NCBI GenBank assembly: GCA_020137815.1
Contig: CM035351.1
Coordinates: 124,001-188,000 of the forward strand
Length of the DNA: 64,000 bases
Reading direction: 5' to 3'
Source of the DNA: Hormiphora californensis
Lineage: Eukaryota; Animalia; Ctenophora
Shown here: piece after piece, positions 27,329 through 64,000 of the stretch
How the letters are laid out: each line of letters starts with the position of its first letter
Position numbering within the stretch: position 1 is the first letter of the stretch
Position numbers and translations under genes: made by a program
Notes under the pieces: model-generated
What the model was told of the DNA's origin: nothing
Database searches by the model: none
What the model saw: the letters and a program-made list of their open reading frames with translations, nothing else

Positions 27329-27386
<58 letters not shown>

Positions 27387-31494: not shown

Positions 31495-32852
<1,358 letters not shown>

Positions 32853-34681: not shown

Positions 34682-36815
34682 GGCAATTTTGCATTTGCGG
34701 GCATCGCACTATAGACGCAGTACCCACGTACTATAGACGCATTATAAACGCATTATAAACGCATTATAGACGCATTATAGACACACGCAATATAGACGCA
34801 ATTTCGTAAGCAGCACTATAGACGCAATATAGACGCATTATAACAGCAATATAAACGCATTTTTATAGACGCGACGCAGTATAGCCGCATTATAGGCGCA
34901 CTACCCACCCCAAAATCACCTTATAGACGCACTATAGACGCATTATAGACTGACTATAGCAACACCATAAACACTACATAGACCCATATAGACGCATGAT
35001 AGCAGCATTATAGACGCAAATCGCTTTTTATAGACGCCGCGTCTATAAAAAACGTGCTTTTTTAAGAAGCACTATAGACGTACTTCAGGCTACAGTGCGG
35101 GTGGGCGGACTCTAGTGCTAACGGACTCTTTATCTAAATCCAAGGCGGACTCTATATCTAAAAACGGACTCTTTATCTACAGTTAGATTTTGAAAAAAGT
35201 TTAGATAAAGAGTCCTCCCTGTGTAGACTTTTTAGATAAAGAGTCCGCCCTGTGTAGAATTTTTAGACATAGAGTCCTCTAGTACATTTTGGCGCCAAAT
35301 CCTCCAACCCGGACTCTATGTCTAAAATCCTAACCCAACCCAAAACCTAACCCTAACACTAACCCTAACCCTAACCTCGAACCCAAATAACGGCCCTAAC
35401 ACTTCTAAATTAGTATAGGGGTAGAGCAAACTCTCGTTTCCGGCCTAACGGCCGAAATCTCGAGTTCGCGGCGAAAGGCGGACTCTATATCTAATTTAGA
35501 TTTATGTAGATATAGAGTCCACTTTGTTTAGACTTTTTAGATAAAGAGTCCGCCCTGTGTAGACTTTTTAGATAAAGAGTCCTCCTAGAGTTTAGAATTA
35601 TTTGGACTCTTTATCTAAATTTAAATTTAGATATAGAGTCCTCTTTAGACTTAGAGTGTAGCACTAGAGTCCGCACACCTACAGTGCGATATTTGAGGCG
35701 CAGTTGGGCGTTTTATAAACGCATTTTTGTCGCATATAAAAGGAAGCAGTATAGACGCATTATAGACGCATTATAGCCGCATGTGTGCGAAATCGATAAA
35801 GACGCAATATAGACGCAAAATAAGAAGGAGAGGGAGGGAGAGGGAAGGAGGGAGGGAGAGGGAAGGAGAGGGAAAGAGGGAAAGAGAGGGAGGGACTGAG
35901 GGAGGGATACAGGGACAGAGACAGACGGATAAAGACCTGAGACAGAAGGACAGAGTAAGATGGAAAGAGAGTAAGATGGAAAGAGAGTGATATATAGGGA
36001 CGGAGTGAGACAGAAAAAGACAGAGATGGAAACAAACGGACAGAGACAGACGGACGGACAAACACGCGCTTACTATCTCCCTCTCTGTCTCACTCTCTCT
36101 CCATCTTAATCTCTCTCCATCTTACTCTGTCCGTCTGTTTCAGATCTGTGTCCATCTGTCTCTGTCTGATCTGTCTCTGTATCCCTCCCTCTTTCCCTCT
36201 CCTTCCCTCTCCCTCCCTCCCTCCCTCCCTCCCTCCCTCTAGTCTCTCTCCCTCTCCTTCTTATTTTGCGTCTATATTGCGTCTTTATCGATTTCGCACA
36301 CATGCGGCTATAATGCGTCTATAATGCGTCTATACTGCTTCGTTTTATATGCGACAAAAATGCGTTTATAGTTCGCCCAACTGCGCCTCAAATATCGCAG
36401 CGTGCGTCTGAGTACGTCTATAGTGCTTCTTAAAAAAACACGTTTTTTATAGACGCGGCGTCTATAAAAAGCGATTTGCGTCTATAATGCTTCTATCATG
36501 CGTCTATATGGGTCTATGTAGCGTTTATGGTGCTGCTATAGTCAGTCTATAATGCGTCTATAGTGCGTCTATAAGGTGATTTTGGGGTGGGTAGTGCGCC
36601 TATAATGCGGCTATACTGCGTCGCGTCTATAAAAATGCGTTTATATTGCTGTTATAATGCGTCTATATTGCGTCTATAGTGCTGCTTACGAAATTGCGTC
36701 TATATTGCGTGTGTCTATAATGCGTCTATAATGCGTTTATAATGCGTTTATAATATGCGTCTATAGTACGTGGGTACTGCGTCTATAGTGCGATGCCCGC
36801 AAATGCAAAATTGCC
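34682..36815. mobile_element. Foldback-type transposon copy 3 (right module of the composite)
   Basis: Same long arms as copies 1 and 2. Confidence 0.92.
35100..35679. mobile_element. MITE (GGTGGGCGGACTCTAG family), long copy with TAACCC repeats, nested in foldback copy 3
   Basis: TIRs; 9-bp TSD TACAGTGCG at 35091-35099 and 35680-35688. Confidence 0.9.
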
Positions 36816-36988
36816 CACATTATATAACTGATTTATTTGACGGGGGAGTTATATTGTGTATAGAAATTTGTTGTTTGTAATGTTTTAAAACTGTATCACC
36901 AAATTCAGCTGTATTGAACTTCGTATGGTGCAGTGAGGGACTTTAGTGAGAATTAAACTGAGAATGTGTGTGATGGGTATCAAGGAAA

Positions 36989-37265
36989 GGGTCACCACAC
37001 ACCAAAGTTAAAATTAAAATTAAAATTTTGATTTTAAACCCGCACACATCAGCGGCCGTTAAAATTTCTCTCCCTTATTCTAAAAGTAACAATCTCGCGC
37101 GCGATTTTAACGGCGTGTTAAAATTTTGTCATCCAACGCGACCGTCAAAATCGTGCGTGAGATTGTTACTTTTAGAATGGGGAGAGAAATTTTAACGGCC
37201 GCTGGTGTGTGCGGGTTTAAAATCAAAATTTTAATTTTAATTTTAACTTTGGTGTGTGGTGACCC
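36989..37265. mobile_element. Palindromic ~277-bp MITE (Harbinger-like), copy 1
   Basis: GGGTCACCACACACCAAAGTT...AACTTTGGTGTGTGGTGACCC; AAA on both sides; second copy at 61040. Confidence 0.88.
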
Positions 37266-37969
37266 AAAAGGGCCTATAAAAACCAAGATTGAGGGGGTCG
37301 CACCAGGTGTCTATATGTCACCAAAAGGAAAAGGGCCTATAAAAAACTTGATCCTCCGCGGATCTGTCAGGCCAATGCTCTGACCACAGTTCTCGCGGGC
37401 CAATGCTCTGACAGCCGCGGATGACCTTTAGACCTTTGTCATGGATCTGTCAGAGCATAGGCCTGACGGCTGACCCTATTCGAGAACTGTGGTCAGAGCA
37501 TAGGCCTGACGGCTGACCCTATTCGAGAACTGTGGTCAGAGCATTGGCCTGACAATTAGGATAAATTGGTCATGGTCTGTAGTTCGTAGTCGTAGAGAGC
37601 AAGGAAAGATTGAATAATAATAATATTAACTGTCCAGAGCTGCGCAGAGCTGCGCAGAGCTGTGTTTTGCTCTAGATTCTTCTATCTACTATAGACTAGA
37701 TCATAGATTGTCTTGTCTAATCGATAGGGCATTAACACAGAATCACCGAGATAGATGGAGGGTTAATATCTTTTCTAGCTTAGCAGGATCTCTACGCTAC
37801 GAACTGCAGTACATACCGTGACAAGTTAGCGAAGCTAATGTTGTTAACAACAATAGCTTCGCTAACTGGTCACGGTATGTACTGCAGTTCGTAGAGAAAG
37901 GTGTATGGATAACAATGTTATCAATCCACTTTCTCTCCCTCTCCTAGCTCCTGTCTCCTGGGGTTATAA

Positions 37970-39397
37970 TGTAGGACTGGGTGTGACCCCGAGAGAGTGC
38001 AGACTCGCAGTGAGAATGCCCATCTCTGTGTAGCCTGGGTAGGACTGTAAAAACCCCAGGGTGGCTAGGTTGTGTGGCCACTGCTACACTCCTACCGGAC
38101 TACCTATAGTCCGTACTCCAAAAGCTCCCGTATCCTTAGGATTTAGCATTTGTATACACATAATATGGGCCAAGGCATGCACTGCGAATGACCCAATGGA
38201 GACCACTATGCAATGTTTCCGAAAGCCAGCCCCCATTCCGTACCGTTTCCAACGCGATGGCGAGCACGGTGTTTCCCATAGAAAACACCGAGCTCTAAAA
38301 CATAACTCATGTATTTGAGGGGCGTGAATCCCTTGCCTGCACGCAAACCAATGATAAAAACATAAAGCCCATGAATACACGTATTTCAGCCTGTAAATAT
38401 AATACTCTCGCACTCTCTTCTACATCACTCTCTCACTCGCTCCTCTACATCACTCTCTCACTCTCTTATCTACATCACTCTCTCATTCTCTTATCTACAT
38501 CACTCTCTCACTCACTCACTTCTCTACATCACTCTCTCACTCACTCCTCGATCTCACTCTCTCCTGGCCCCTATACCACTGCATAACGCCTCCTTAGTTA
38601 GCCCAACAAGCCCAAGCCCGAATCACAAGCAAACTGAGTCAACCCGATCAGGTGGCGGTCTAATGACTGAGAGACCATTGCACAATGTAGCCTGTCGGGG
38701 AAGACCCTCCGACACATATGGAGACCATGTTGAGCCCGTCAGATGACCATGGCCTGATAGCCAAGCAACTCTCCGACCTGAGCAAGTCCCAAGCAGAAGT
38801 GAGGATTTCACCCCTCGCTTCCGAGTTTTGTTACGTGCGCCTGAAGGCGGGGAATCACCCCTAATCACGTGCTAACTGCCCCGTCCCCGATTGGCCAATT
38901 ACCGCGTGTGCCGTAGGGGAATAAGCAAAGGAGGGGAATTACGCATTGTCCTAACGCAGGTCACGTGACCCGAGCCTCTCGCGGAACCAACTTGCTAACA
39001 GCCGATGAGTCGCCCGAAAAAACCTAATTACGATTATGCCCGCTAAAGGATTATTGTCCGCACCTAGTTAGCAAGAAACTTATCATGTAGCCCACGGAGT
39101 GATGGCACCCCTGGTACAGCTAATGGTTTTCCCGGGAATTTCTCCCTGAAGCCCGCTTCTAATGGCCCAAGGCCCCTCTCCCCAACTCTGACTCGTCTCT
39201 CTCTCTGTCTCTCTCTTTGCACTTTATCCTCAAAATAACTCAAAAAATAGTAACTCCATTACGGCCCTCTGTATCACACTCTCTTCCCATTAATATCGTG
39301 AAATAAAATATTAATAAAAAACACACCAAATATATATAACACACTAAACATATATAAGTATGTTTGCCCGGCCTAAATGTAGGTTTACCGCCCTACA
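37970..39397 (-). repeat. 3' LTR (1428 bp)
   Basis: TGTAGG...CCTACA; direct repeat of 52215-53642, with identical ORF-track translations. Confidence 0.97.
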
Positions 39398-39465: not shown

Positions 39466-41766
39466 CTATTTGTCCGTGGCTGCACTTATGGCTGGTGGCG
39501 TCTTACTCAACCGAGGATATAAGGAGGCCGTAAAAGGGATCACTGGTGCCGATGCTGGTGTGCCCGTTTTGACAGCCTGAGAGCCCCCTTTTAGCCCCGA
39601 GTCCCCTTTCCCCAATGTGAACGCTTTCCCGAATGCCCGAACCCCAGTTGTCCGAACCGGTGCCGTGTCCCCCTCCGGAAGCCCCTGCCGCTCCTCCTGG
39701 CCGGCCTCCACAGGCCCGGAAATCTGCAGCGTCCTCCATCCGCGTAGTTCCGCCTTGTATCTTCCCACCCGCGCATTCCAATGACTACATGCTATGAGGC
39801 CGAATGATATGACATTCAATGCTATCCCGATCAGGCTGACTATATCCAGCCATCCCCACTCTCCTCCTTCCTCCCGAACCATCCGAACTGCCCAGGCCAG
39901 ATCCTCTTGGGTTTGTTCCTGTTCCGTCAGCTGCTTAGCCAGTCTGGTGACATTGCCTGTGTCCAATACCCTCGAGGTTGCCTGCAGATGCTCCTCCCAA
40001 GCCTTGACGTCGGGTAGCTGTAGCTCCTGGTGCAGTGCTACCTCTCTGCTAGACGCCATCATCCTGTGATTAATCATCAAATATGAATAATCAAGCCATG
40101 AATAGAAGCCCGTCCGATTGCTTTCGATTTCCTGGAACGTAAGTCCGCCCTGGTTCCCCGCCTGGATGCCCCTAACCGGTGTTTCACTGAAGACGAGGGC
40201 TCCGGCTACTGTGAAGACTGTGCGGTCCTCACATACGGCCAATTTAGATTTACACTCTCTTCTCCCGTTGAGGCACATTGCCGGAACGTGTTCTTCTACA
40301 GCATTGCCGTGAGTTGGTCTAAGACAAATCTTTAATAATGCGTCCCTGTCGTAACACCCGTCGCCTGGTCTGACCTCATAAAATCGGTCCCCGATGCGAT
40401 ATACTTCATCGGCCATTTCAAAAAGTAGACAGGTGTGGTTAACCTTGATGCCCACTTGTGCCACCGAATACCTCGGATACACGCTGCCCGGCTGTAACAG
40501 AGGAACTGTCATCACAAAGTGGAACTTCCAGCTGAAATCATTTCTCTGCATGCCCATCAGCGTCATTTTGCCCAAAGTATAAATGGTTTCGGGCTGCCCG
40601 ATAAAAATTGAGCCCTGGAAAACCGGATTTTCCTGCACCAACCTCTCCAAGCTTGCCAATTTTAGGAGTTCCGGCAGAACCCCTATGGTTAACTCGTTGG
40701 CCAAGACCCCCGATAGTATGGTACGTGTATGTCGTTCCCATTGTCCAATCTTCCTCTCCAGTGCAGGCTGGTATGATAGCCAGCTCACATCACAAGCCAT
40801 TGCCTTTAACTCCCCTTCGAACCCCTGGAACAGTTCAATCACATCCCTGTTGAATTTTAGCTGGTGTTCAAACTGCCGTTGTGCTGTGTTCGCAAACTCT
40901 GCAAACTGTCCCCTCAGCTCGCGCAGGTGTTTCCTCATCCGTATTCCCTCCCATAATGTAGCTCCTAGCCCCACCACTGGAAGTGCCATGCCCACCGCCA
41001 ACAAGCTACGTTTCTCGTGCCCGGTGCTGCCCTGTTCCTCGCCCCCTAATTGGTACGCCTTTTTTAACGTATCAAAGTTATTCAGAGACGTCTGCCATAA
41101 GGCCTCCTGATCCGCCTCTGTCCGCTCCCTAAAACCTGCCGCCAGGTCCGGCTCATCGTAGTGCTCGCGGCATCGGTCCTCGACCACTGTCCATTTCTTG
41201 AGATTCAAAGTCTGCCATGTTGCCCACTGTCGTCCTTGTAGGTTTGCGTTGTCCAGGATATCCCTGTCTTCTTGCTTGCTTTCGCGATAATCTTTGAAGT
41301 TAACTCGACACTGTCCCTCCGATTCCCGGAATGCACAGTTTTCGCCCTTCATCCGAATGCACCATTGTATGCACTTGGTCCAATTGTCCGTTAGTTCATC
41401 GTTCTGGAGCCCGTTTAGTTTAATCAACAACGCCGTAGTGCCGAACCGCTGTCTGTCCTTCTCCTGCATCTTTTCTACCCACTCCTCATCTATCCTGCAT
41501 TTTTGCCACCAGCTGACCCTACACAAACCCACTGTTGGCCAAGTTGGAATCGGTAAGTCGATAAAAAGAGAAGCGAAGATACTGTCCCCACCGCTGCCCA
41601 GGAAACCCACGGGCTGCAAGGCGACCCCCAAGTCTGTCATAACGAGTGGCTCCGTTGAGAGCTCAAGTTGTCTGTGATCCATGCCTGCTGCGCCCACCTG
41701 CCTGCCCGCCAACCCACTCAGCACTGCCACATAAACACATACAACCGACGCTACTGATGCTGCCAT
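39466..41766 (-). CDS. env: Envelope glycoprotein, class I fusion (F-type) architecture, 766 aa
   Basis: Signal peptide; HEKR followed by hydrophobic fusion peptide SLLAVGMALPVVGLGATLW; heptad repeats; Cys-rich region; N-glycosylation sequons; TM WLDIVSLIGIALNVISFGLIA; located between pol and the 3' LTR. Confidence 0.88.
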   Translation of the reverse strand: MAASVASVVCVYVAVLSGLAGRQVGAAGMDHRQLELSTEPLVMTDLGVALQPVGFLGSGGDSIFASLFIDLPIPTWPTVGLCRVSWWQKCRIDEEWVEKMQEKDRQRFGTTALLIKLNGLQNDELTDNWTKCIQWCIRMKGENCAFRESEGQCRVNFKDYRESKQEDRDILDNANLQGRQWATWQTLNLKKWTVVEDRCREHYDEPDLAAGFRERTEADQEALWQTSLNNFDTLKKAYQLGGEEQGSTGHEKRSLLAVGMALPVVGLGATLWEGIRMRKHLRELRGQFAEFANTAQRQFEHQLKFNRDVIELFQGFEGELKAMACDVSWLSYQPALERKIGQWERHTRTILSGVLANELTIGVLPELLKLASLERLVQENPVFQGSIFIGQPETIYTLGKMTLMGMQRNDFSWKFHFVMTVPLLQPGSVYPRYSVAQVGIKVNHTCLLFEMADEVYRIGDRFYEVRPGDGCYDRDALLKICLRPTHGNAVEEHVPAMCLNGRRECKSKLAVCEDRTVFTVAGALVFSETPVRGIQAGNQGGLTFQEIESNRTGFYSWLDYSYLMINHRMMASSREVALHQELQLPDVKAWEEHLQATSRVLDTGNVTRLAKQLTEQEQTQEDLAWAVRMVREEGGEWGWLDIVSLIGIALNVISFGLIACSHWNARVGRYKAELRGWRTLQISGPVEAGQEERQGLPEGDTAPVRTTGVRAFGKAFTLGKGDSGLKGGSQAVKTGTPASAPVIPFTASLYPRLSKTPPAISAATDK

Positions 41767-42805: not shown

Positions 42806-45800
42806 TCAATTGACCGAGTACTGATATCTCACGGGTTTTTTAATAACACGTTTAGAGCGTCTTAATAAACCATCCCTATGAATCCCCACCTGTCCCGGTC
42901 CCAAGTCTGATCCGTCATCTGTTTTCATGTCGGCCCTCCAAGACTTGCTATCCTGTTCCCGTCGTTTGCTTGATTTTTTAATCTTCTCCCCCTTGTTTTG
43001 TCTTCCCATCACCCACACGGGTCTGTTCGACTCGTGTTGTCTACCTGTAAGTCTCCAACCTGGTTCTTGCCAGGATCGGCCAATTATTGGCTTAGTGACT
43101 TCCCCCCGGTCATGTAAGCCTTCCCTATACCCCGTGTTTCTCAGTGTCAGTGGTGGTTCGTCATGTGGTGTCGTTAGATGTTCGCTGGTTGATGTTCCCA
43201 GTGGTGCGGTTCCCCCTTCGCCTATAGTGACCTTCCTTCCGAGTGGTTCCTTTGTGTCTTCTCCCTCAGAGCTATCCTCCTCCTCTGACGAGCTGTCACT
43301 AAAAGGTTCATCCTCTGTAGGATGTCCTGCTCTGTCAGTATGGAGGAGTGAGCTCCCCGGGTTAGAGTCCTTAGTTTTACGCAAATTTACACCAGGCTTC
43401 ACCTTACGTAGTGCATCAAAATGAACTACCTCGTGTTTGCCCGTCTCTGCATCTTCCACGATGTAATTTTGTTCATTTATACATTTTGTGATTACCAAGG
43501 GACCTTTATACGTGTTTCTGAACTTTCGGTAATCCCTTATTTTTGCCGGCAAGGGCTTATACAACAGAACGTGGTCACCCACGCTATACGTAGTAAAGTT
43601 TACATTTTTATCGTAAGCCCGTTTTTGTAATTTCATTGCATGCCCCGTAGTGGCACGCACCAAATCAAAGACCTCCCTGAATTTATAATAGACCGCTGAT
43701 TTATACTGCTCTTTGTTTTCATAGAACTGAGACTGAGTGGTATCGAAGATAGCATCAGCCGCAGTTCTCACCGTGTAAGAAAACATTAGATCGTTGGCCG
43801 AATACTTAGTTGTGGAGCTTACCGCGTTGTTAAGAGCAAAGACAGCTACCGGTAATTTCTCCACCCATGTATCGGGTTTTTCCCCTACCAATTTTTTAAG
43901 AACCGCCACAACGTCTCTATGACGTCTTTCCACCTGCCCGTTGCCCTGTGGGTGATACGCCGTTGTACGCACCTTATTAATTTGTAAAACTTTATAAATT
44001 TCCTGTATGACCTTAGAGCTGTGCAAATTTGACGCTTGATCCGACAGCACGGTTTCCGGTACTCCAAAAATGAAGCACCATTTTTCCATGAATGCTCTAG
44101 CTATATTTTTGCTGGTGGCCTCTACCAAAGGACTCGCCATGAAGTATTTGGTGAATCGATCAATCATAGTAAGAATGTATTTAGGAATGCCCGGGGCCGG
44201 TGTAAACGGCCCTACTATGTCAATAGCTACACATGCGTTTGGTCTACCGACCTGAAACTGTTTAAGCGGTGCTCTCGGTTTTTTGAAGTATGCTTGGTTA
44301 TTCAGAAAGCACGCTTTACAGCACTGGCAATAATGCTCTATTTCTTTGTGCATGTTTGGCCAGTAGTAAGATTTGAGTACGTTATCTGTCGTACTCTTGC
44401 TGCCCATGTGCCCTGCGGTTGCGTTACTATGATAAGCCTTCAAGATCTCGTCGCGTTGCTCTTCCGGGACACAGATCAAGAGCCCAAATTTCTTAGATTT
44501 TGGCGTGTAACGTTTGTAACAGATCACATCGTTCTGGTTAATTATCAAGGATTCAAATTTGTTCCAATATTTTCGCAACTTAATGGTGAACGCCTTAGCC
44601 CATCTTCTGAGAGGTTTTTCTCCTTCTACCAGCCATTTCCGGACTTCCGTCAGCACGGTGTCCCCTAATTGTGATGCCCTCCATTTACCTGCCCTATCTG
44701 ATACCGAAGCCGTGGGATTATCCCAGGACCCAATGGGGTCCTTTTTTTTAATTTTTACCGCGGCGACGGCCGTCTCTTTTAAATCGGTGGCCTGAGAATT
44801 ACTGATATACCAGTCGTATAGCACGGACGAATGGGTGGGAGCCCGTACGTCTCTACTTAATAGGTCAGGGAGTTGCATCTGAACTCCGCTTTTGTGGACC
44901 AGTTCAAAATCATAGTCCGCCAGGGCTATTATCCACCTCAACATAACTGCCGAGGTAGTTTTTCTCAAGAATTTGTCCCCGGTGATCGCCTCCATGTCGA
45001 TCACAGCCTTAAATTCGGCGTTGATGAGGTAAAAGCGCCACTTCTCTATGAAGTATTTCAGGGCCAGGAACTCCCTTTTGAAACTTGGGTACTTTGACTC
45101 TGTTTCTGAAAGCACCTTGCTCCCATAGGCTATAGGCCTAAATTTCCCGTCTATTTCATGCCCTATGACGCCCCCTAAAGCAACCATACTTGCATCCGTG
45201 TACAGCACCATTTTCTTGGTGACGTCCGGAAAGATCATCACCTGCGGGCTACAGAGAGCCTCCTTCAGTTTCTCTACACTGGCCCTAGCTTCCTCCGTCA
45301 TTACGAAGTCTGGCCCTTTCAATGTGTCTGTAAGCCCTTTGGCCAGCAGTGCAAATTTCGGAATATGGGTCCTAAACCAAGAACAGGCCCCTAAAAACCG
45401 TTGCACTTGCTTCCGCGAAGCCGGCATTGCGATGTTCCTAACTGCTTCCGTTTTTTCCCCATCAGTCTCGACGCCGTTGACTGATAGGAACATGCCCAAA
45501 AATTTTATTTTCCTCTGAAAAAGTTGGCACTTCTTTGGATTCAGAGTCATACCCGCTTGGGTCACCCGGGTAAAAACCTCGTCTAAAATGGCACACATTT
45601 CCGTGAAAGTGGAGGCGCTCGCTATTATATCGTCGATGAAGCCAGCCGCCTTGTCCCCTTTCATGCCCTGCAAAATTTTGTCTAACAAGGCCTGATATGT
45701 ACTGGGCGAGCCTTTTAATCCCAAAGGCATCCTAACGAATTCGAAATGCCCGATGCCCGGAATGGTGAACGCCGTTCTATCCCTATGCTCAGGTGCCATT

Positions 45801-47071
45801 CCAATTTGAAAATAACTATCCTTGAAATCCAATGTGCTAAAAAGTTCTTTACCGGCCCAGTTGGCCGTTATCGAGTCTACTGCAGGCACGGCTGCATATG
45901 ACCTTTTAGAATGTTTGTTTAATTCTCGGTAATCGATTAGTAAGCGCCTTTTGCCCCCTCTCTTCATGAGAATTGCTGGGGACGAGAACTCACTAGAGCT
46001 CCGTTGTATAATGCCCGCATCCAAAAGTTCAGCCACTTCCTCTTCACAATCTTTGAAAAGATGGAAAGGCACCCTCCGATATTTGCAACGAATTACGGTA
46101 TCCCGTTCTGCCAGTGGGACGGTGTGCTGTATTAACGTCGTTAGTCCCAGCTGGTCCCTACCGAGGGCGAATACGCCCTCATGTTTACTCACTAGCTGTG
46201 TGGCCAAAAGTTTTTCATCTTCTGATAAGTTTGTGTTCTCGTTGAATTTCAAAGCCTCTAGAATTCCGTCTAGATTGGATTTGTCACCGTCTATCTGGAC
46301 GGTTTGTATTCTGTTTAAAGTTTCAATAACTTCTAAAGCTGTGCCCAGACAGACCTGCGGGGATATCTCCCAGTCTCCCCCTTCCCATTCATTGCGAAAC
46401 GGGAGACTGCAATACCCATTCTTTACTTCCATAGCCCATGAACAATTTGTGTCGCCTCCTATGTCTTCACTAGGGAACAGGGAGAAAACTCCCGTTATGT
46501 TTTCCCTTTCGTTAGCCTCGTTTTGCAAACGAGCCTCAGCCCAAATCATGCCTTCTGCTGGCACACAAATGGACTTTATTAGATGTACGTTTAGCGCCCT
46601 TTTGCCTTTTTTCTTACTCCCCGCTAGAAGAGGAGCCTTAAAATCAGGTCCAGTGACCAAATTTAAGTCAAAGTTTATTGTTGCCCTGGCTTCTCCCAGC
46701 CATTCGGTACCCAGGATCACGTGATCCCTTAGTTCCTTGACTACCAGGAAGTTTGTTACGAAGGGTTTGTCCCCTATTTTAAAAGGAACTTTATTTGCTC
46801 TATACAAAACGGGAAGGGAGATTCCCGAAATCCCCGTTATTAAGACGTGCTCAGCCGCCTTATCCGCTACCTTCTGTCTAAGGAACCACTCCTCACTACA
46901 TAAATTCCTAGCCGCACCACTGTCAACCAGCCCGTGAACTGTCCCATCCCTACCCATGATCCTAACGAACACTTGCCCCCCACATGAATTTATTTCGAGA
47001 AGAGAAACGTCCTTACACTCAGACCACTCCGACTGTCCGATTAACACCTCTCTTCTCTCTATTCGTTTTTT
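42806..47071 (-). CDS. pol: Pol polyprotein (protease-RT-RNase H-integrase), Ty3/Gypsy order, expressed by -1 frameshift from gag
   Basis: LVDSGA protease; LDFKDSYFQ and FIDDII RT; YTDAS RNase H; H-H-C-C and D,D,E integrase (IDIVGP, SDQ, GQVER); KGP motif. Confidence 0.97.
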   Translation of the reverse strand, partial: KKRIERREVLIGQSEWSECKDVSLLEINSCGGQVFVRIMGRDGTVHGLVDSGAARNLCSEEWFLRQKVADKAAEHVLITGISGISLPVLYRANKVPFKIGDKPFVTNFLVVKELRDHVILGTEWLGEARATINFDLNLVTGPDFKAPLLAGSKKKGKRALNVHLIKSICVPAEGMIWAEARLQNEANERENITGVFSLFPSEDIGGDTNCSWAMEVKNGYCSLPFRNEWEGGDWEISPQVCLGTALEVIETLNRIQTVQIDGDKSNLDGILEALKFNENTNLSEDEKLLATQLVSKHEGVFALGRDQLGLTTLIQHTVPLAERDTVIRCKYRRVPFHLFKDCEEEVAELLDAGIIQRSSSEFSSPAILMKRGGKRRLLIDYRELNKHSKRSYAAVPAVDSITANWAGKELFSTLDFKDSYFQIGMAPEHRDRTAFTIPGIGHFEFVRMPLGLKGSPSTYQALLDKILQGMKGDKAAGFIDDIIASASTFTEMCAILDEVFTRVTQAGMTLNPKKCQLFQRKIKFLGMFLSVNGVETDGEKTEAVRNIAMPASRKQVQRFLGACSWFRTHIPKFALLAKGLTDTLKGPDFVMTEEARASVEKLKEALCSPQVMIFPDVTKKMVLYTDASMVALGGVIGHEIDGKFRPIAYGSKVLSETESKYPSFKREFLALKYFIEKWRFYLINAEFKAVIDMEAITGDKFLRKTTSAVMLRWIIALADYDFELVHKSGVQMQLPDLLSRDVRAPTHSSVLYDWYISNSQATDLKETAVAAVKIKKKDPIGSWDNPTASVSDRAGKWRASQLGDTVLTEVRKWLVEGEKPLRRWAKAFTIKLRKYWNKFESLIINQNDVICYKRYTPKSKKFGLLICVPEEQRDEILKAYHSNATAGHMGSKSTTDNVLKSYYWPNMHKEIEHYCQCCKACFLNNQAYFKKPRAPLKQFQVGRPNACVAIDIVGPFTPAPGIPKYILTMIDRFTKYFMASPLVEATSKNIARAFMEKWCFIFGVPETVLSDQASNLHSSKVIQEIYKVLQINKVRTTAYHPQGNGQVERRHRDVVAVLKKLVGEKPDTWVEKLPVAVFALNNAVSSTTKYSANDLMFSYTVRTAADAIFDTTQSQFYENKEQYKSAVYYKFREVFDLVRATTGHAMKLQKRAYDKNVNFTTYSVGDHVLLYKPLPAKIRDYRKFRNTYKGPLVITKCINEQNYIVEDAETGKHEVVHFDALRKVKPGVNLRKTKDSNPGSSLLHTDRAGHPTEDEPFSDSSSEEEDSSEGEDTKEPLGRKVTIGEGGTAPLGTSTSEHLTTPHDEPPLTLRNTGYREGLHDRGEVTKPIIGRSWQEPGWRLTGRQHESNRPVWVMGRQNKGEKIKKSSKRREQDSKSWRADMKTDDGSDLGPGQVGIHRDGLLRRSKRVIKKPVRYQYSVN

Positions 47072-48426
47072 GATTCCCCTGCTTTATTAGCGGTAGGTGT
47101 CGAGCCTTCTTGGAAGGAGACTGCTCGAGGTCTCACATGCCACGGGTTGGGTTGAGCTTCCGCGACCCCACCTTGCTGCTGTCCCTGTCCCATCCAATGG
47201 TTATGCCGTCCTCGTCCCTGCCCGTTTCCGTTGAATCTGCCTCCCCGTGAAGGACTGTAGCCCTGTTGCCGATTGGGGTTGTATGAGCTGAACTGTGGGT
47301 TTGGGCCACCCGTGCCGCACTGCATGCACCTGTTGCGCCGGGCGAAATTATGAAACCCACATTCCTCGCAGAGCCAGTCCCCCACCTGTAGTTTGGCCTC
47401 GAACCTCCGCCCGTTGTACCCTCTGTTCTGTCCGCCCCACTGCCGAGCCTGCCCCTCCCATGGCCGGTGCTGCCTCTCCCCAGTTTGGCGAGGCCCCTCA
47501 TACTGTGCCTGTAGTGGAGCTCCTCCCTGGTTTGCCCGTGCCTCCCCTTGCCCTGCCGCCAGTACCGTGACCTCATTAAGCCCAGACACGTCGTTCCGTG
47601 CCGTTAAAGCCTTCTCCTTCCGGTCCATGTTTTCCACCAGGTCCGCGAAGGAGTCCCTCTCCAGCTTTTCCGCTATCTCACACGCGATCTTGTCGTCCCT
47701 GGCCCCGATCCATAGCGTGTCCTTCAGGAGCTGCTCCAACTCCGGGCCCTCCACGTCCCCCAGATCCGCTGCCTCCCTAAGTAGCCGATCCCCAAAGTCC
47801 CTAACCGTCTCCTCCAACTGCTGCTTCAGGGCCCGGAACCGTGAAATGGCCACCACTTTCAAATCGGGTGGGGCCAGCACTAAAACTACCCGCTCCAGGT
47901 AGGCCTCCCACGATTTGGCCTCGGACGCCTTCTTGTCCCCCCGTACTTTCAACGAGGACACTTCGTCCAAGTACGTCGGAAATATCTCACGTGCATCCTC
48001 TGTGGATATCTTGGCTGCCCTCCTATAGCCCTCCCATGCGTCCACGAATGCCCGCACGCTTTTGCCCTTCTTGAACGGCTCCGGCTTCCTCGCCAATTGA
48101 TGCCTCTTGGCCCTCCCCGTGCCCCACTCCGTCCCAATACCTCCCCTGGCCCCGACTGCCTCTGTTTTGATCCACTCCTCCTTCTCCTCCCGTAAGCCCT
48201 GTATCATCCTCTTGGCCCCCTCCAAGTCCCGTGCGTACCTTTCCTCATTCTCAGCTATCGCCTTGCCCGCCTGCTTCCTAACCTCCTCCACCTTCTCCAT
48301 GCCCTCCCCCATTCCCCTTGCCCGCGCCCTTTCCTGCTCCCGGAGCACCAGTTGACACAGCTCCTCGCCCTGGCCCTCGTTTAAGTTCAGTCCTTGAACG
48401 AATTCGTTGATAGAGATGCCCTCCAT
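47059..48426 (-). CDS. gag: Gag (coiled coil, capsid-like region, Gly/Arg/Gln-rich NC with RanBP2-type zinc finger)
   Basis: Directly upstream of pol; capsid-like PEPFK..., QQLEETVRDFGDRL major-homology-like motif; likely ATG at 48426. Confidence 0.9.
   Translation of the reverse strand: MEGISINEFVQGLNLNEGQGEELCQLVLREQERARARGMGEGMEKVEEVRKQAGKAIAENEERYARDLEGAKRMIQGLREEKEEWIKTEAVGARGGIGTEWGTGRAKRHQLARKPEPFKKGKSVRAFVDAWEGYRRAAKISTEDAREIFPTYLDEVSSLKVRGDKKASEAKSWEAYLERVVLVLAPPDLKVVAISRFRALKQQLEETVRDFGDRLLREAADLGDVEGPELEQLLKDTLWIGARDDKIACEIAEKLERDSFADLVENMDRKEKALTARNDVSGLNEVTVLAAGQGEARANQGGAPLQAQYEGPRQTGERQHRPWEGQARQWGGQNRGYNGRRFEAKLQVGDWLCEECGFHNFARRNRCMQCGTGGPNPQFSSYNPNRQQGYSPSRGGRFNGNGQGRGRHNHWMGQGQQQGGVAEAQPNPWHVRPRAVSFQEGSTPTANKAGESKNE
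47065..47071 (-). promoter_or_regulatory. -1 ribosomal frameshift slippery heptamer A AAA AAC
   Basis: gag ends ...TCA AAA AAC GAA TAG; the -1 frame is open into pol (RIERREVLIGQ). Confidence 0.85.
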
Positions 48427-48770: not shown

Positions 48771-49415
48771 CTACTCGGTTCCAAGGCCGCATATGGAGGC
48801 GATATGACCGTACGTTAAACACCGGGAACACTCGATCATTTGTTGAATGCGAGGCGGCTTTACGTTGTAGCGACCGAACGCCTCGTGATCCCGGCTGATG
48901 GTTTCCCGGCTGTCGGCCATTTCACGACGGTGCATACAGCGCACCCATGTGGCGTTTGTTGCCATCCTCCGGCCCTCCCTCCGCATCCTGGCATCCCTCT
49001 CCTCCCGCCTCCTCCGTGCCTCCACCGCCCTCCTCTCCCGTTCCTCCGCCTGAATCCTCTCCCGTGCCGCCGCCCTTGCCCTCATCAACCCCGCCACCTT
49101 GCCCCTCCTCGCCTCCTCCTCCAGCCTCAACGCCGCCAACTCCGCCCCTAACCGCCGATCCTCCGCCATCCAATCCTCCATCCGCCCCTCCTCCTGCCTG
49201 CCCGTCCCCGGCCCCTCCGACACCTGCCCAACCTCCTTCGCCTCCTCCGCCGGCACGCCCACTGCCTCCACCTCCACGCCTTCGTCCACCCCCTCCAGCT
49301 CATCTGCCCAGCTACCAATGTCCTCCTGCCACGTCTTCGTCACCACCACCGCCGCCGTCGCCGCCGCCTTCGCATCCGACACCTCCTCCGCCCGTTGGAT
49401 TTTGCTCGTGTTCAT
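48771..49415 (-). CDS. Accessory ORF-B, 214 aa: acidic N-terminus, Arg/Glu coiled coil, C-terminal CCHC zinc knuckle
   Basis: ATG preceded by a splice acceptor; CSRCLTYGHIASIC fits C-x2-C-x4-H-x4-C. Confidence 0.75.
   Translation of the reverse strand: MNTSKIQRAEEVSDAKAAATAAVVVTKTWQEDIGSWADELEGVDEGVEVEAVGVPAEEAKEVGQVSEGPGTGRQEEGRMEDWMAEDRRLGAELAALRLEEEARRGKVAGLMRARAAARERIQAEERERRAVEARRRREERDARMRREGRRMATNATWVRCMHRREMADSRETISRDHEAFGRYNVKPPRIQQMIECSRCLTYGHIASICGLGTE

Positions 49416-49557: not shown

Positions 49558-49592
<35 letters not shown>
49558..49592 (-). other. Internal poly(A) tract (~35 nt) on the element's sense strand
   Basis: T run on the + strand ~70 nt downstream of the ORF-A stop. 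Confidence 0.9.
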
Positions 49593-49663: not shown

Positions 49664-50242
49664 CTATTCCGGCACGTCCACCCTGGATATTAGGGCCGCC
49701 CGTTTGTACCCAAACCTTATGGCCCACCGTGTCAGCTTTAACAAAGCCCCCTGCCCAAAGTCCACTGCGGCTATGAGTTCTGTGGCCCCCAATTCCCCTC
49801 TCACCCAGTAATGATTGGCCGCCGCCACCCGATGCCTCTTGGAGTCCACCCCACCCCGTGCCCGGCCCATTATCTCCTCCCAGCCCCACGGGTCGCTATA
49901 CCCCTCTATCTCCATAATGGCCTGGCCCACCCTAACATCTATCCAGGCCCCCTTCAAGTCCTCCCAACAAAAATAACATAACCGGGCCCCCATAATGGCC
50001 TCTACCTCCGAATCCCAGATCTCCCTGCACCCCCTACGTGCACACTCTTCCGGCCCTGCCCTAGGTAAGTCCGGCTCCCCCAACGGATACCTCCGGCCCC
50101 CCACCAAGTCGATGACCGGCAGCTCCCCATCCTCCTCCGGCAACACCTCCGACCTCTGCACCTCCCGCGCCTCCACCCGCGCCTCCAGCCGTTCCTGTGC
50201 CCGCACTACTGATATCCGTCGCCGTTTACTGTCTTGTGACAT
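49664..50242 (-). CDS. Accessory ORF-A, 192 aa, unknown function
   Basis: ATG-initiated, same strand as gag/pol, preceded by a splice acceptor; N-terminal KRRR; C-x4-C and C-x2-C pairs. Confidence 0.65.
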   Translation of the reverse strand: MSQDSKRRRISVVRAQERLEARVEAREVQRSEVLPEEDGELPVIDLVGGRRYPLGEPDLPRAGPEECARRGCREIWDSEVEAIMGARLCYFCWEDLKGAWIDVRVGQAIMEIEGYSDPWGWEEIMGRARGGVDSKRHRVAAANHYWVRGELGATELIAAVDFGQGALLKLTRWAIRFGYKRAALISRVDVPE

Positions 50243-52195
50243 AGTGTTGCGCTATATGGGACAGTCGGAGGGTTTAGTGGAATGTCCCACAATTTTTTTA
50301 TAAAACCCGGTGTGAACCCGTGAACCCCATGAAGTACCCGTCTTTACCCATCACAATATAACTAAACTCAATGTAGTGGTGTAACTAAACAGTATGAAGA
50401 TGGTGCAGTGATAAACTGTTTTCCACTATGTTTTTCCAAATCCGGTTTACCTACGCAAAGCCAATCATAACTAAAACAAATGCTTGATAATAGTACGAGG
50501 ACCTCTAACTATAATTTCCAAACTTGTTCGAGCTCGCGCCGTCCCCCTCCCGGAAGTTGTTGCACGCTACTCACCTTTGTAACCCACTACAGCACCATGG
50601 TTGATTTGCTGTCCAGAGTGGGCTACCGCAGCGCCTTTACACAACTGTTCACTGAAACCGCGGTCCAAAGTTTCTTCTCGACAGTATTTCATAACACATA
50701 ATATTAATAATGAACGAATCAATTGATGCCATTGCTACCTCTCTCTGGGCTCCATCTCGGTCGCTGCGCAACCTTGATTTCGCCCGAGTGAGGTAACACA
50801 GTGTGAGCAGACCCATGTGCCATTAAACGCGCATCTTAACCTCGGCCCATACCTCAACCCGCACCCCAGCCCTTAACCTCCGACCCTACCTCCGTCACCC
50901 GCCCTTACCAACGTGCAATTTGGCACAGCAAACTCTAGACTCCGACCTTACGGTCCAAATGTCGAGTTCGCTGAGAGAGAGATTAGCGCTCATGAGTCCG
51001 CACACTATGTAAATAGCACCAAAAACTTCGATAAAACAGAGAGAATATTTAAATACATAGCCCGTTGCCTTCCCATAATAATAACAACCCGCCACATTCC
51101 TTATATAACATCATTCTCCCCCCACACAATTGCTAAATCATTATACATTGCAAGCAATATAAGCCAAATTGTGGCTGCACACCTTACCCTAAACAGTCTG
51201 TCTTTTCCTTTCTAATACGTGCCTAACATAAACCAAATTTCAGTCTTTTACTGTACTACTAAGGAATTTTTAGGGGTGAGTGAATGGGTGTCTTACCATG
51301 CAGCATGACTTCATGGCTGCCTCTGAACCAAGTGGGAAACCTTTGCCCTAGAGTTTTGTGGGGAGGTCTAAACATGTAAAATAAAATGCAAGTAACGAAT
51401 TCAACGGTGAGGGTATTTCTAGTCACTCCCGCAGATGGGGCACCAACATAAGGCAACTGCTGTTTCAAGCTCCTAGACTGCGTAGTTTTGATATTGTTAT
51501 CATGTAAAAATCTCACGTCCCGTCCCCCTGAGTGTATCTCCACCCCCTGAATCCTGATTAACCCATACTCACATACCCCACATATAAAAAGTCAAGTAGT
51601 AACAGAACAGGCCGCCAAGAGAGAAATTATTTCATGATGATGTGAGAACGATGCAAGGATAATGGGGAAACGAAATGAGAATGTCATTATCACTGGGTGG
51701 TGGAAGTATAATTGGAGAAGTGAGAACGAGGTGATAACGATATCAGGATGGTGCTATCACTGTGTGCGTGCACTGAACTGTGAGAACGAGGTGATAATGA
51801 TGTACTACCATTTATCAGGAAGATGTGTAAGTAATGTGAATAGGGTATGAGAGAGATGTGAAAATTTAACAGGGATGTGATGATGATATCAGGAAAATTT
51901 AAGGGGCTTGGCTGCCGTTCTGCTGTTACCCAGACTTGAGAACCTGATACTACAAGCATAAAAAATCATTCCCTGCCCGTAATCATATAAATCAAACTAC
52001 CTAAATGACCAATTAACAAACGCGGGCAGACCTGCAGAGGTAGTAAACGAAAAGCTGATTTTATAGATTGTTCTACTCATAATCTCCACTCAACTCCTGT
52101 GCGCTCTCTCCGAATGAATAATTGGCTCCTCACCAATAACCGGCCCAACTATGCAAGCCCCGTGTATACAAACATGAACTCAGATTCATTAATCT

Positions 52196-52211
52196 GGTTG
52201 TCGTCGGACCA
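52196..52211 (-). other. Primer binding site (tRNA not identified)
   Basis: Minus strand TGGTCCGACGACAACC starts 3 nt after the 5' LTR. Confidence 0.7.
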
Positions 52212-52214
52212 TAA

Positions 52215-53642
52215 TGTAGGACTGGGTGTGACCCCGAGAGAGTGCAGACTCGCAGTGAGAATGCCCATCTCTGTGTAGCCTGGGTAGGACTGTAAAAACC
52301 CCAGGGTGGCTAGGTTGTGTGGCCACTGCTACACTCCTACCGGACTACCTATAGTCCGTACTCCAAAAGCTCCCGTATCCTTAGGATTTAGCATTTGTAT
52401 ACACATAATATGGGCCAAGGCATGCACTGCGAATGACCCAATGGAGACCACTATGCAATGTTTCCGAAAGCCAGCCCCCATTCCGTACCGTTTCCAACGC
52501 GATGGCGAGCACGGTGTTTCCCATAGAAAACACCGAGCTCTAAAACATAACTCATGTATTTGAGGGGCGTGAATCCCTTGCCTGCACGCAAACCAATGAT
52601 AAAAACATAAAGCCCATGAATACACGTATTTCAGCCTGTAAATATAATACTCTCGCACTCTCTTCTACATCACTCTCTCACTCGCTCCTCTACATCACTC
52701 TCTCACTCTCTTATCTACATCACTCTCTCATTCTCTTATCTACATCACTCTCTCACTCACTCACTTCTCTACATCACTCTCTCACTCACTCCTCGATCTC
52801 ACTCTCTCCTGGCCCCTATACCACTGCATAACGCCTCCTTAGTTAGCCCAACAAGCCCAAGCCCGAATCACAAGCAAACTGAGTCAACCCGATCAGGTGG
52901 CGGTCTAATGACTGAGAGACCATTGCACAATGTAGCCTGTCGGGGAAGACCCTCCGACACATATGGAGACCATGTTGAGCCCGTCAGATGACCATGGCCT
53001 GATAGCCAAGCAACTCTCCGACCTGAGCAAGTCCCAAGCAGAAGTGAGGATTTCACCCCTCGCTTCCGAGTTTTGTTACGTGCGCCTGAAGGCGGGGAAT
53101 CACCCCTAATCACGTGCTAACTGCCCCGTCCCCGATTGGCCAATTACCGCGTGTGCCGTAGGGGAATAAGCAAAGGAGGGGAATTACGCATTGTCCTAAC
53201 GCAGGTCACGTGACCCGAGCCTCTCGCGGAACCAACTTGCTAACAGCCGATGAGTCGCCCGAAAAAACCTAATTACGATTATGCCCGCTAAAGGATTATT
53301 GTCCGCACCTAGTTAGCAAGAAACTTATCATGTAGCCCACGGAGTGATGGCACCCCTGGTACAGCTAATGGTTTTCCCGGGAATTTCTCCCTGAAGCCCG
53401 CTTCTAATGGCCCAAGGCCCCTCTCCCCAACTCTGACTCGTCTCTCTCTCTGTCTCTCTCTTTGCACTTTATCCTCAAAATAACTCAAAAAATAGTAACT
53501 CCATTACGGCCCTCTGTATCACACTCTCTTCCCATTAATATCGTGAAATAAAATATTAATAAAAAACACACCAAATATATATAACACACTAAACATATAT
53601 AAGTATGTTTGCCCGGCCTAAATGTAGGTTTACCGCCCTACA
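52215..53642 (-). repeat. 5' LTR (1428 bp)
   Basis: Direct repeat of 37970-39397. Confidence 0.97.
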
Positions 53643-54613: not shown

Positions 54614-57600
54614 ACTGGACAGCTGTTATAGAGAGGGAGGTGAAGTTATTCTGGGACCTGGAGGGAACACCTCTCCAGATAAAGACGGACTCTTCAGTTG
54701 GCAGTAACAAAAAGATCTATGTTGAGCTGTATAGTAATAGTGGCAGTTTCCAAAGTGATGTAGTCGTGAAGTTTAGTTCTACAGTGGAGTATAGGATCTA
54801 CGATTGCACCAGCGACTGGCCAGATCTGCCAGTCCAGCCCTCAGGGGTGGAGGACAAGGTCTGGACGATCAGTAAAACTGAGAGCCATCTAACTATCGAG
54901 TGTAATGGTTTAACTCTCCTGAACTACAAGTTTTCAGACGGGAAAAGTAGCTGCGCTTCACTAATGAGCGTTGTGCAGAAAATAGCCTTTCACGATGAGG
55001 ACACAGCATCTGACTTCTACAGAGCAGGTATATCCACTAGATATGTGAATGGCGCAACCTATAGGGGGGGTTCCAGCCTATTTTTTTGTATTTTTTTGTA
55101 TTTATTTGTACGGACCATACATAAAAGTATCAAAAATTCCTGTTTTTTCCATCATACTATTATTAAAGCAAATAGGGAAATCCCATGTCCCGTTTTTTTA
55201 ACCAAATATGGCACAAAATTCCTGGAAATGGCCTTTTGCACGTGTTGTCCCTAGAGGGACCCTGGCAACCTGCCAGCTTGAGCCTTAAACTGCACGTGCA
55301 TCCTTGATTCATCTTTCTGCCGGTTGTGTGATTGATCGTTTGCTCGATTTGATCTGTTCACCACGTTTCGTGAACATGACTACTGAACTTCAACACAATC
55401 GCCAGCGAGTTTGGAGGAGCCATATCTCCCAAACTGGCGCTGACGCCTATAGACTACGTGATAGAATCCTACAAAAGAGGTGATTATTATTCAAAAAAAG
55501 TTGTCAACACACGTAATAACAAAGTATCAATGGCATTAATAAGAAATGATAGTAATACGTGAAAGTATTTTGCCAATGTACTCCTCTCCTTCATAAAATA
55601 CTTCAGGACCTGGCAAAAGAGGACCCGTGGTTTTTTGTTGAAAGAATCCCTGTGGTTAATTTACCTGATAAATTTACTGATTTTAAAAATTTCAAATGAT
55701 ACTACACTATTTGCTTAGTTTACTGTATGACCATCCCTGATATTCGCCCGTAGGGCGAGCGGGCTTACTAGTACAAACAATACAAAAAATACAAAAAAAT
55801 AATGAAGGATGTGGTCGGTAAGAAATTGCGATTCGGGAAAATTTCTCGCTTAGAAAATACGATTCGAGAAAATTTTCTCGGTAAGAAATTGCGATTCGGG
55901 AAAATTTCTCGCTTAGAAAATACGATTCGAGAAAATTTTCTCGTTAAGAAATTGCGATTTGGAGAAATTTCTCGCTTAGAAAATACGATTCGAGAAAATT
56001 TTCTCGGTAAGAAATTGCGATTCGGGGAAATTTCTCGCTTAGAAAATACGATTCGGGGAAATTTTCTCGGTAAGAAATTGCGATTCGGGGAAATTTCTCG
56101 CTTAGAAAATACGATTCGAGAAAATTTTCTCGGTAAGAAATTGCGATTCGGGAAAATTTCTCGCTTAGAAAATACGATTCCAGAAAATTTTCTCGGTAAG
56201 AAATTGCGATTCGGGAAAATTTCTCGCTTAGAAAATACGATTCGAGAAAATTTTCTCTGTAAGAAATTGCGATTTGGAGAAATTTCTCGCTTAGAAAATA
56301 CGATTCGAGAAAATTTTCTCGGTAAGAAATTGCGATTCGGGGAAATTTCTCGCTTAGAAAATACGATTCGGGGAAATTTTCTCGGTAAGAAATTGCGATT
56401 CGGGGAAATTTCTCGCTTAGAAAATACGATTCGAGAAAATTTTCTCGGTAAGAAATTGCGATTCGGGGAAATTTCTCGCTTAGAAAATACGATTCGAGAA
56501 AATTTTCTTGGTAAGAAATTGCGATTCGGGGAAATTTCTCGCTTAGAAAATACGATTCGAGAAAATTTTCTCGGTAAGAAATTGGGATTCGGGGAAATTT
56601 CTCGCTTAGAAAATACGATTCGAGAAAATTTTCTCGGTAAGAAATTGCGATTCGGGGAAATTTCTCGCTTAGAAAATACGATTCGGGAAAATTTTCTCGG
56701 TAAGAAATTGCGATTCGGGGAAATTTCTCGCTTAGAAAATACGATTCGAGAAAATTTTCTCGGTAAGAAATTGCGATTCGGGGATATTTCTCTCGCGATT
56801 TTGGCATGCTATATATGTAGCCGTGTGCGGCAAAAAAAAGGCCCCCCCTAGACCACCATAGTTGCCGATGTGGTGGAGAGCTGTAACTTGGCAGGGTTGC
56901 TCCACTATGTCTATCTTGATCCTGACAGAAAAATCAGAGCTCTAGCTCAAAATTCATTTTTTTGATAGGAATGAACATTGTCATTCATTCCAAGAAAAAA
57001 ATATTTTCGGTCCAGAATTCAAGCAATTATCTTTGGCCATCGATTAGCTTTCCAATGTGACCAAGATCATCTAAATTGGGCAACCACAAGAGACACAGTG
57101 TCATGTTTCTTAAAGTTAGTCAGGTCATGTGATCTTCACCGAATCGTTGATTATCCGGGATTGCTAATCGAGCCAATGGGCAGAGGAATCTCGTATCACG
57201 GCCGCTAATGAGGTATGTGTACCAATACAGGGTAATGTGATTCGAGGAAAGAGGACATTTATCAAAGAGCTACAGATCTCATGACCAATCAGCATCGTCA
57301 TCCCTCATTAGTAGCCGTGATACGTGATTCTCTACCACTTAGACCGATTCGTAATACTGAACACTCAACGATTCGGTGAAGATCACATGACCTGATTAAA
57401 TTTAAGAAAGATGACACTGTGTCTCTTGTGGTTGCCCAATTTAGATGATCTTGGTCACATTGGAAAGCTAATCGATGGCCAAAGATAATTGCTTGAATTC
57501 TGGACCGAAAATATTTTTTTCTTGGAATGAATGACAATGTTCATTCCTATCAAAAAAATGAATTTTGAGCTAGAGCTCTGATTTTTCTGTCAGGATCAAG

Positions 57601-58708
57601 ATAGACATAGTGGAGCAACCCTGCCAAGTTACAGCTCTCCACCACATCGGCAACTATGGTGGTCTAGGGGGGGCCTTTTTTTGCCGCACACGGTATTTTG
57701 TGCTAAATTGCGTGAAATAGCGTGGAAGAATGTTTAAAAACAGTAAAAGTTCGAACAATAATGGTAAATTACCATATAAAACTGTTTTTATTTTTTTGTA
57801 TTTTTTTGTACTTTTTTGTATTTTTTTGTATTTTTTTGTTTGAGGAAAGCCCTGTTTTTTCCGTACAAACGTACAAGAAATAGGTTGGAACCCCCCCCCC
57901 CACCCTATACCATTCAATAGTACTTTCGGGCAGGTCATCTTCCAGACGCAGCAATCACAAACAACATATTCAATAGATCAAGATTCACTTTTACTGTTGG
58001 GTCAACATTGTCTCATATGAGACCCTCCTCTTCGCACCGGGCCGAAAGCCCGGTGCGGCTACGTGAGGCCGCGTAGCGAGGAGGTTGCGCGATGTACAGT
58101 CAGTGTGTGACAAGGTCAACAGTGTTGACTGTCTGCAGCTTCATTACCTGGGGCGCTGGTCTAAACATAGTGATTTCCCAATTATTTCTCTGAATGATAG
58201 ACATAGCTAACCCACCATTTTATTCAGAACCAGAGTGTCCAGCCTTTACCGTTGAGGGATCAACACAAGGAAGCTGGTCTACCTCACCAATAGGGACAAC
58301 TGCCACCATCGAGTGTGCTGCCACCCATAGCCTTGTGGGAAGTGCAACACTGACTTGTCAGGATGATGGAACATGGTCAAGCGATGTACCGCAGTGTGAT
58401 GAAATAGGTCAGTTAACATTTTGAAATGCATAAGGGGGTCAGCGGAGGGTGCCAAATGCTCGGTGGTGAATCACGACTGGTGATACCAAACCTCTTATTT
58501 GTATGAAACATATAAATATCTTCTAATTCCATTTCAGAGTGTCCAGCCTTTACCGTCGAGGGATCGAAACAAGGAAGCTGGTCTGCCTCACCAGTAGGAA
58601 CAACTGCCACCATCGAATGTGTTGTCAACCATATCCTTGTGGGAAGTGCTACAGTGACTTGTCAAAACGATGGATCTTGGTCTGGTGAAGTGAAGTGTGA
58701 TGTAATCC
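54614..58708 (+). CDS. Partial modular extracellular protein: beta-sandwich 'WDLEGTPLQIKTDS' domain exon (54614-55027) plus two sushi/CCP exons (58228-58407, 58538-58708)
   Basis: Symmetric phase-1 GT-AG exons; CCP pattern C...C...LVGSATLTCQDDGTWSSDVPQC duplicated. Confidence 0.75.
55745..55771 (+). mobile_element. Helitron-like 3' terminus (5' end not resolved)
   Basis: GC-rich hairpin CGCCCGTAGGGCG followed by CTAG|T. Confidence 0.55.
55817..56790. repeat. 63-bp tandem satellite (dimer of ~31/32-bp subunits), ~15 copies, intronic
   Basis: Unit GGTAAGAAATTGCGATTCGGGGAAATTTCTCGCTTAGAAAATACGATTCGAGAAAATTTTCTC. Confidence 0.95.
56821..57693. mobile_element. Non-autonomous TIR element with ~390-bp inverted arms
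   Basis: CCGTGTGCGGCAAAAAAAAGGCCCCCC / GGGGGGCCTTTTTTTGCCGCACACGG; mirror ORFs at 56978(+) and 57537(-). Confidence 0.88.
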
Positions 58709-63997: not shown

Positions 63998-64000
63998 CTG

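Follow-up and report, generated by a model that had tools for sequence, protein, structure and literature searches.

A RanBP2-type zinc finger in place of CCHC knuckles at the nucleocapsid position of a ctenophore Ty3/gypsy Gag

The Gag protein of an intact, young Ty3/gypsy retrotransposon of Hormiphora californensis carries a RanBP2-type C4 zinc finger at the nucleocapsid position and lacks CCHC knuckles, whereas its relatives carry knuckles, the module with which the Gags of LTR retroelements and retroviruses commonly grip RNA. The element lies within a 64,000-nucleotide stretch of contig CM035351.1, referred to here as the window, in which all positions are numbered. With modest confidence, we favour the explanation that this finger, likely captured, acts as a functional G-reading substitute for knuckles lost from the Gag nucleocapsid. 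The replacement is judged real and, for a gypsy Gag, apparently undescribed; it is represented by one copy, and the domain as such has a precedent in Gags generally.

The W-x-C-x2-C-x3-N-x6-C-x2-C motif occupies positions 47382-47314 of the minus strand (Gag residues 349-371), exactly where the sequence-only reading had located it, and residue mapping together with Pfam identified it as a RanBP2-type C4 zinc finger (PF00641, Zn_ribbon_RanBP; 32.2 bits against a cut-off of 27 bits, E=6.1e-8). It appeared in 0 of 200,000 shuffles of the Gag protein, and a six-frame scan revealed it to be the sole such motif in the window. A motif scan of Gag bore out the absence of a CCHC knuckle, a module that is common but not universal in Ty3/gypsy Gags. 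The residues Asp350, Phe361, Arg363 and Arg364, equivalent to Asp68, aromatic 79, Arg81 and Arg82 of the RNA-binding RanBP2 subclass, are all kept, and this residue signature supports the earlier assignment of the finger to that subclass. Phe358 and Met368 (mapped through RBM5) occupy the positions of the U-reading Asn pair, and the GGU-specific signature of the ZRANB2-F2 type (Asn76 plus Asn86) is absent. The Thr of the ubiquitin-binding TF motif is also absent, which counts against protein binding. Among PDB entries, RBM10 was the best single-finger match (2mxv, E=3e-7), followed by RBM5 and ZRANB2; Nup153, with two fingers summed, ranked after RBM10, the fingers of RanBP2, TAB2/3 and HOIP likewise appeared, and TAF15 (2e-4) and FUS (6e-3) were weaker. 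The finger had also been described as FUS/TAF15-like and set in Gly/Arg/Gln-rich sequence with RGG. Its flanks are indeed rich in these residues (G 18%, R 11%, Q 13%), but they contain only one RGG and three RG in 165 residues, and the tails of relatives are comparably Q/N/R-rich with somewhat less Gly than this Gag; the FET-like label was rejected because the flanks are not RGG boxes and the FET fingers are not the top PDB matches.

The gag ORF (47059..48426, minus strand; start at 48426) encodes 455 amino acids, with an N-terminal coiled coil, a capsid (residues ~112-281) and a basic disordered tail. Its match to the Pfam family Retrotrans_gag is weak (E=0.017), its homologues carry Retrotrans_gag plus CCHC, and its identity to CCHC-bearing Gags is 25-33%. 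The capsid region was modelled as helical (pLDDT 70-95), and the top PDB fold matches of this model were all retro-type capsids (PNMA2, dArc1 and MLV), the best at E=7e-3 and none reaching E=0.001; the finger was not resolved in the AlphaFold model (pLDDT <50). By sequence and modelling, the ORF is judged to be a genuine Gag with a retro-type capsid because of the weak Retrotrans_gag match, the capsid fold matches and the identity to CCHC-bearing Gags.

The element hosting gag is a 15,673-bp LTR retrotransposon on the minus strand with a gag-pol-env Ty3/gypsy organization. Its 1428-bp LTRs (5' LTR, 52215..53642, TGTAGG...CCTACA; 3' LTR, 37970..39397, with a G-rich polypurine tract just before it; both minus strand) are identical, and the insertion is flanked by a 4-bp target duplication, TTAT. 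Three nucleotides past the LTR lies a PBS-like site recognized from its sequence (52196..52211, minus strand), which starts with TGG and would be compatible with a tRNA bearing A73 and a C1:G72 pair, like eukaryotic tRNA-Tyr. The errantivirus PBS table, as far as it is given in the available text of PMC13524379, contains no counterpart of this site. The pol ORF (42806..47083, minus strand; 1425 open codons) encodes protease, RT, RNase H and integrase in Ty3/gypsy order and lies in the -1 frame relative to gag; a predicted -1 frameshift signal (46997..47071, minus strand) combines the slippery sequence A AAA AAC, where gag ends, with a hairpin located downstream of it (-27.9 kcal/mol, z=-4.9). 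The env-like ORF (39466..41766, minus strand; 766 amino acids) has an N-terminal hydrophobic signal, a C-terminal transmembrane helix, and a KR site with a hydrophobic stretch resembling a fusion peptide after it, features that fit an F-type envelope; it had no Pfam or PDB match and was modelled at pLDDT 33. The LTRs, target duplication and PR-RT-RH-IN order place the element in Ty3/gypsy (Metaviridae). Judging from its identical LTRs, the target duplication, the uninterrupted ORFs and the intact frameshift signal, it seems to have inserted recently, with the finger-bearing Gag. Elsewhere in the window, 43-bp-unit tandem satellite arrays occupy 1-8000 and 55770-56930, and a 26-bp tandem array occupies 62650-64000. 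A dispersed family of 400-700 bp repeats in both orientations, together with small palindromic MITE-like elements, lies at 19400-36800, 36988-37268, 61037-61324 and 56821-57693, and an uninterrupted 469-amino-acid ORF (29671-31080, plus strand) has several hydrophobic stretches and no Pfam match above cut-off.

The position of the finger was compared with that of knuckles in related proteins. A homologue search against 1.84 billion representatives, of which the best 150 of 1003 matches were considered, gave 8 matches to the capsid region; a further 16 Gags found by capsid profile and 6 by cluster look-up brought the set to 30. In this set, which draws in part on the best 150 of 1003 matches, one or two CCHC knuckles follow the capsid in 27 of the 30 Gags and a RanBP finger in none, in agreement with the proposal that the finger stands in place of the nucleocapsid knuckle. 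The remaining three have no finger of any kind, two of them ending early and one being a fragment; P0143 and P0154, related Gags that end shortly past the capsid, may be NC-less Gags or broken copies. The nearest named relatives of both Pol and Gag are Mnemiopsis leidyi proteins. A tree of the RT-RNase H region was built from the element and 23 of 45 Pol matches, leaving out P0016 and P0024 (short coverage) and 20 distant sequences; it placed the element as sister to P0001+P0002 (UFBoot 84) in a clade split from the outgroups at 100, with weak inner nodes (51-65). A link from Pol to Gag runs through P0197: its Pol part shares 86% identity with P0002, and its Gag part 98% with the two-knuckle M. 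leidyi protein P0160. P0006 bears its own knuckle, and P0003-P0088, P0015-P0200, P0012-P0214 and P0008-P0210 are presumptive Gag-Pol pairs matched by the equal lengths of their contigs. Because the Pol tree puts the element among knuckle-bearing, ctenophore-linked kin, with Gag linkage traced for P0002 and P0006 and presumed for the four pairs, the knuckles are likely the ancestral state and the finger derived.

A second finger-bearing element was not found in the searched libraries, leaving the case at one copy, and it is unlikely that the main library holds a finger-bearing Gag of this clade, which would be expected to outscore the capsid-only matches among the best 150 of 1003. Full-length Gag gave no match in a word-indexed homologue search, viral contigs yielded no Pol relatives, and the capsid alignment offered no stretch conserved enough as a search query. 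None of 30 longer finger-matching proteins picked from the best 150 of 1003 matches had a Pfam Gag or RT domain. The RanBP motif was seen in 0 of 52 loci from a metagenome scan, which at 23-44% identity are too distant to be informative, and the Atlas leads for Gag were all below 0.9 and belonged to Gag/CCHC clusters.

The likely mode of RNA contact can be judged from the cellular counterparts of the finger. According to the available text of PMC11789483, ZRANB2-F2 reads G1 through Asp68 and Arg81, G2 through Arg82 and U3 through Asn76 and Asn86, with Trp79 stacking, and the RBM5 finger prefers GGG; the corresponding part of PMC10349855 describes that in RBM5 Phe195 replaces the Trp and Leu192 and Phe202 replace both Asn. 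From the available portion of PMC6384913, the human RBM10 finger binds all GGN with a preference for GGG and the Asp matters, the mouse RBM10 finger binds more weakly and gave no SELEX enrichment, a caution that this subtype can bind poorly, and no simple recognition code for such fingers was found by the authors. Because the Gag finger keeps the G-readers and, like the fingers of RBM5 and RBM10, lacks both U-reading Asn, it is predicted to bind GGN loosely, with GGU still possible. In the favoured explanation, Asp350, Phe361, Arg363 and Arg364 would read two guanines as ZRANB2 does, and the finger would bind unpaired GG-containing RNA with a loose third-base preference. The basic disordered flanks would supply affinity and chaperone activity, and selectivity for the element RNA would arise as many Gag copies bind along a G-rich transcript, rather than through a single donor site. 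GG density on the sense strand of the element is 114 per kb compared with 45-49 per kb in the flanking host DNA, and reaches 150 per kb in the intron predicted to be removed and 175 per kb in gag, a richness that may only mirror codon use. If this explanation is true, knuckles do no more than read unpaired guanines, a job that modules taken from cellular RNA-binding proteins can take over.

Between the 5' LTR and gag lies a 3.8-kb leader with 69 ATGs and two ORFs. ORF-A (49664..50242, minus strand; 192 amino acids) has no Pfam match; a 35-nt poly(A) run (49558-49592, minus strand) about 70 nt past its stop, still within the element, may represent the tail of an mRNA that was captured. ORF-B (48771..49415, minus strand; 214 amino acids) has an acidic N-terminus, a charged helical middle and a C-terminal canonical C-x2-C-x4-H-x4-C knuckle at 48830-48789 (2 of 200,000 shuffles), which hints at an RNA-handling accessory role. 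A SWADE motif near its N-terminus presumably recalls the N-termini of eIF3g and eIF4B. Compared with a Gag profile, ORF-B matched at the knuckle only (probability 6%), which does not show it to be a Gag fragment, and the search for homologues found none, with an Atlas lead of 0.75.

The leader also contains the predicted major splice donor AAG/GTGAGT (50569..50577, minus strand; donor position 50574), the only one of the element's 912 GT sites to fit the consensus at 9/9 positions; it lies upstream of all four predicted acceptors. A basic acceptor filter retains 164 of the 1211 AG sites of the element; in the ranking of these, the predicted ORF-B acceptor (49423, 7 nt before the ATG) is the best of the element and the predicted gag acceptor (48437, 10 nt before the ATG) the second, while the predicted env acceptor (41784) lies 17 nt before its ATG and the predicted ORF-A acceptor (50252, 9 nt before the ATG) is the weakest of the four, all on the minus strand. 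Among the five strongest branch-point acceptors, three lie ahead of an ORF start (P=5e-5, an optimistic value since the thresholds were chosen after seeing the sites); in the RNA run examined, coverage was confined to a simple repeat. With one predicted donor and four predicted acceptors, the element may follow a splicing scheme like that of complex retroviruses, with gag among the spliced genes, a layout which, like the ORF-B knuckle, the sequence-only reading had overlooked. Because a predicted acceptor sits just before its ATG, the leader holds 69 ATGs and the donor lies upstream, a spliced RNA is the likely source of Gag itself, and the single donor may give rise to the spliced RNAs from which all four ORFs (gag, env, ORF-A and ORF-B) are translated. 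Gag made in this way would package unspliced RNA in trans, possibly with help from ORF-B, which poses the question of how a Gag made from spliced RNA finds the unspliced genome.

The finger might instead be a tolerated passenger, the nucleocapsid job being done by the basic disordered tail or by the ORF-B knuckle in trans, an alternative that we consider unlikely. In its favour, Drosophila gypsy places all nucleocapsid properties in an unstructured Gag region, according to the available text of PMC1635307, so that a finger here may be dispensable; the Gag tail after the capsid has a net charge of +9, a canonical knuckle is retained in ORF-B, and two related Gags end without a finger. The four Cys, Trp, Asn and four G-reading residues are nevertheless intact, although identity between this Gag and its nearest kin is only about 30%, a pattern suggesting that the finger was maintained along a long branch.

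The predicted splicing also supplies a rationale for the earlier proposal that the finger recognizes the retained major splice donor (AGGUGA), by which unspliced genomic RNA would be chosen over spliced gag and env mRNAs. The single perfect donor upstream of four predicted acceptors would be intact only in unspliced RNA and is predicted to be mostly unpaired in two of three folding windows; moreover, ZRANB2 was crystallized on AGGUAA (available text of PMC11789483) and natural fingers with other residues still favour GGU-like motifs (available portion of PMC6384913). Even so, both U-reading Asn are replaced, the splicing is itself predicted, and one micromolar finger reads about three bases, so that with 233 GGU, 72 AGGU and 7 AGGURA in the internal region a single finger could hardly pick out one donor. 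We therefore regard donor reading as distinctly doubtful. A broader scheme, of a ctenophore endogenous virus laid out like a complex retrovirus, in which Gag too is made from spliced RNA, a captured finger selects unspliced genomes through the donor plus intron and the CCHC has moved to a Rev-like accessory protein, seems to us just as doubtful.

As to origin, the closest cellular fingers, among 423 fingers taken from the best 150 of 1003 matches, share 17-19 of 27 residues with the Gag finger and belong to tandem-finger proteins, those named being from a fungus and from algae and protists; no cellular donor gene was found among them. Capture of the finger from a cellular RNA-binding protein of a host is likely. 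Remodelling in place from two ancestral knuckles could account for the shared position, for the aligner pairing the last CxxC with the CxxC of the second knuckle in relatives, and for the lack of a donor gene among the fingers compared from the best 150 of 1003 matches; it is, however, quite improbable, because cellular fingers share the D-W-x-C start, the N-F-A-R-R core and the terminal Pro (up to 19/27 positions among the best 150 of 1003 matches) and the CxxC pairs stand 15 residues apart in closely spaced two-knuckle relatives compared with 10 here. Least probable of all, and only barely credible, is that the finger binds a protein (Ran, ubiquitin or nuclear-pore partners) and aids nuclear traffic or budding: the Nup153, RanBP2, TAB2/3 and HOIP fingers match too and the available text on the frog retrovirus AnERV9 remarks on the nuclear-pore association of the family (bioRxiv 10.1101/2024.07.05.601823), but RNA binders are the best single-finger matches, and both the Asp preceding the Trp and the aromatic-Ala-Arg-Arg surface are hallmarks of the RNA-binding subclass.

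The proposed substitution of a G-reading finger for the knuckles can be set against several known systems. RBM10, RBM5 and ZRANB2 share with the Gag finger the W-x-C-x2-C-x3-N-x6-C-x2-C spacing, the Asp, the stacking aromatic and two basic residues, but here a single finger without an RRM partner is part of a capsid polyprotein, and the third-base positions hold Phe/Met in contrast to Leu/Phe in RBM5 and Asn/Asn in ZRANB2-F2. Env-carrying Ty3/gypsy 'ancient errantiviruses' are known from ctenophores and other invertebrates (Chary & Hayashi, PMC13524379), and in the available text they resemble the present element in their LTR-gag-pol-env order, intact ORFs, and KR plus hydrophobic peptide as in an F-type Env. 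Unlike related Gags with CCHC, the element described here has the finger, together with the 3.8-kb leader and two extra ORFs; the main text of PMC13524379, as available, does not mention RanBP, zinc finger or knuckle, nucleocapsid, CCHC or splicing. Drosophila gypsy is also env-bearing, but a folded replacement finger is not mentioned in the available text of PMC1635307, and in our case close kin have knuckles, with a C4 finger in their slot. For ORF-B, the CERV protein of Cer1 from C. elegans offers a functional model by analogy: made from a spliced mRNA, this accessory protein has a Cys-rich loop and is needed for export of unspliced genomic RNA, whereas the nucleocapsid zinc finger is retained in the Cer1 Gag, and CERV and gag have exons in common (available text of PMC10309623).

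The sequence-only reading had suggested that the arrangement is new among Gags. A search of the literature returned no report of a RanBP2 finger replacing knuckles in a gypsy Gag, to which Repbase, Dfam, GyDB, the errantivirus ORF files and supplements, and subscription journals may hold additions, and the suggestion stands to that extent. The wider label 'never seen in Gag' was rejected, as the frog epsilon-like endogenous retrovirus AnERV9 is a precedent, with two RanBP2-type fingers and one CCHC inside its Gag (bioRxiv 10.1101/2024.07.05.601823, from the available text). AnERV9 belongs to Retroviridae, not Metaviridae, and has kept its CCHC, so that its fingers are an addition and not a replacement; if our explanation is true, the two elements together would make the ctenophore case a second independent recruitment of the RanBP2 finger family into Gag.
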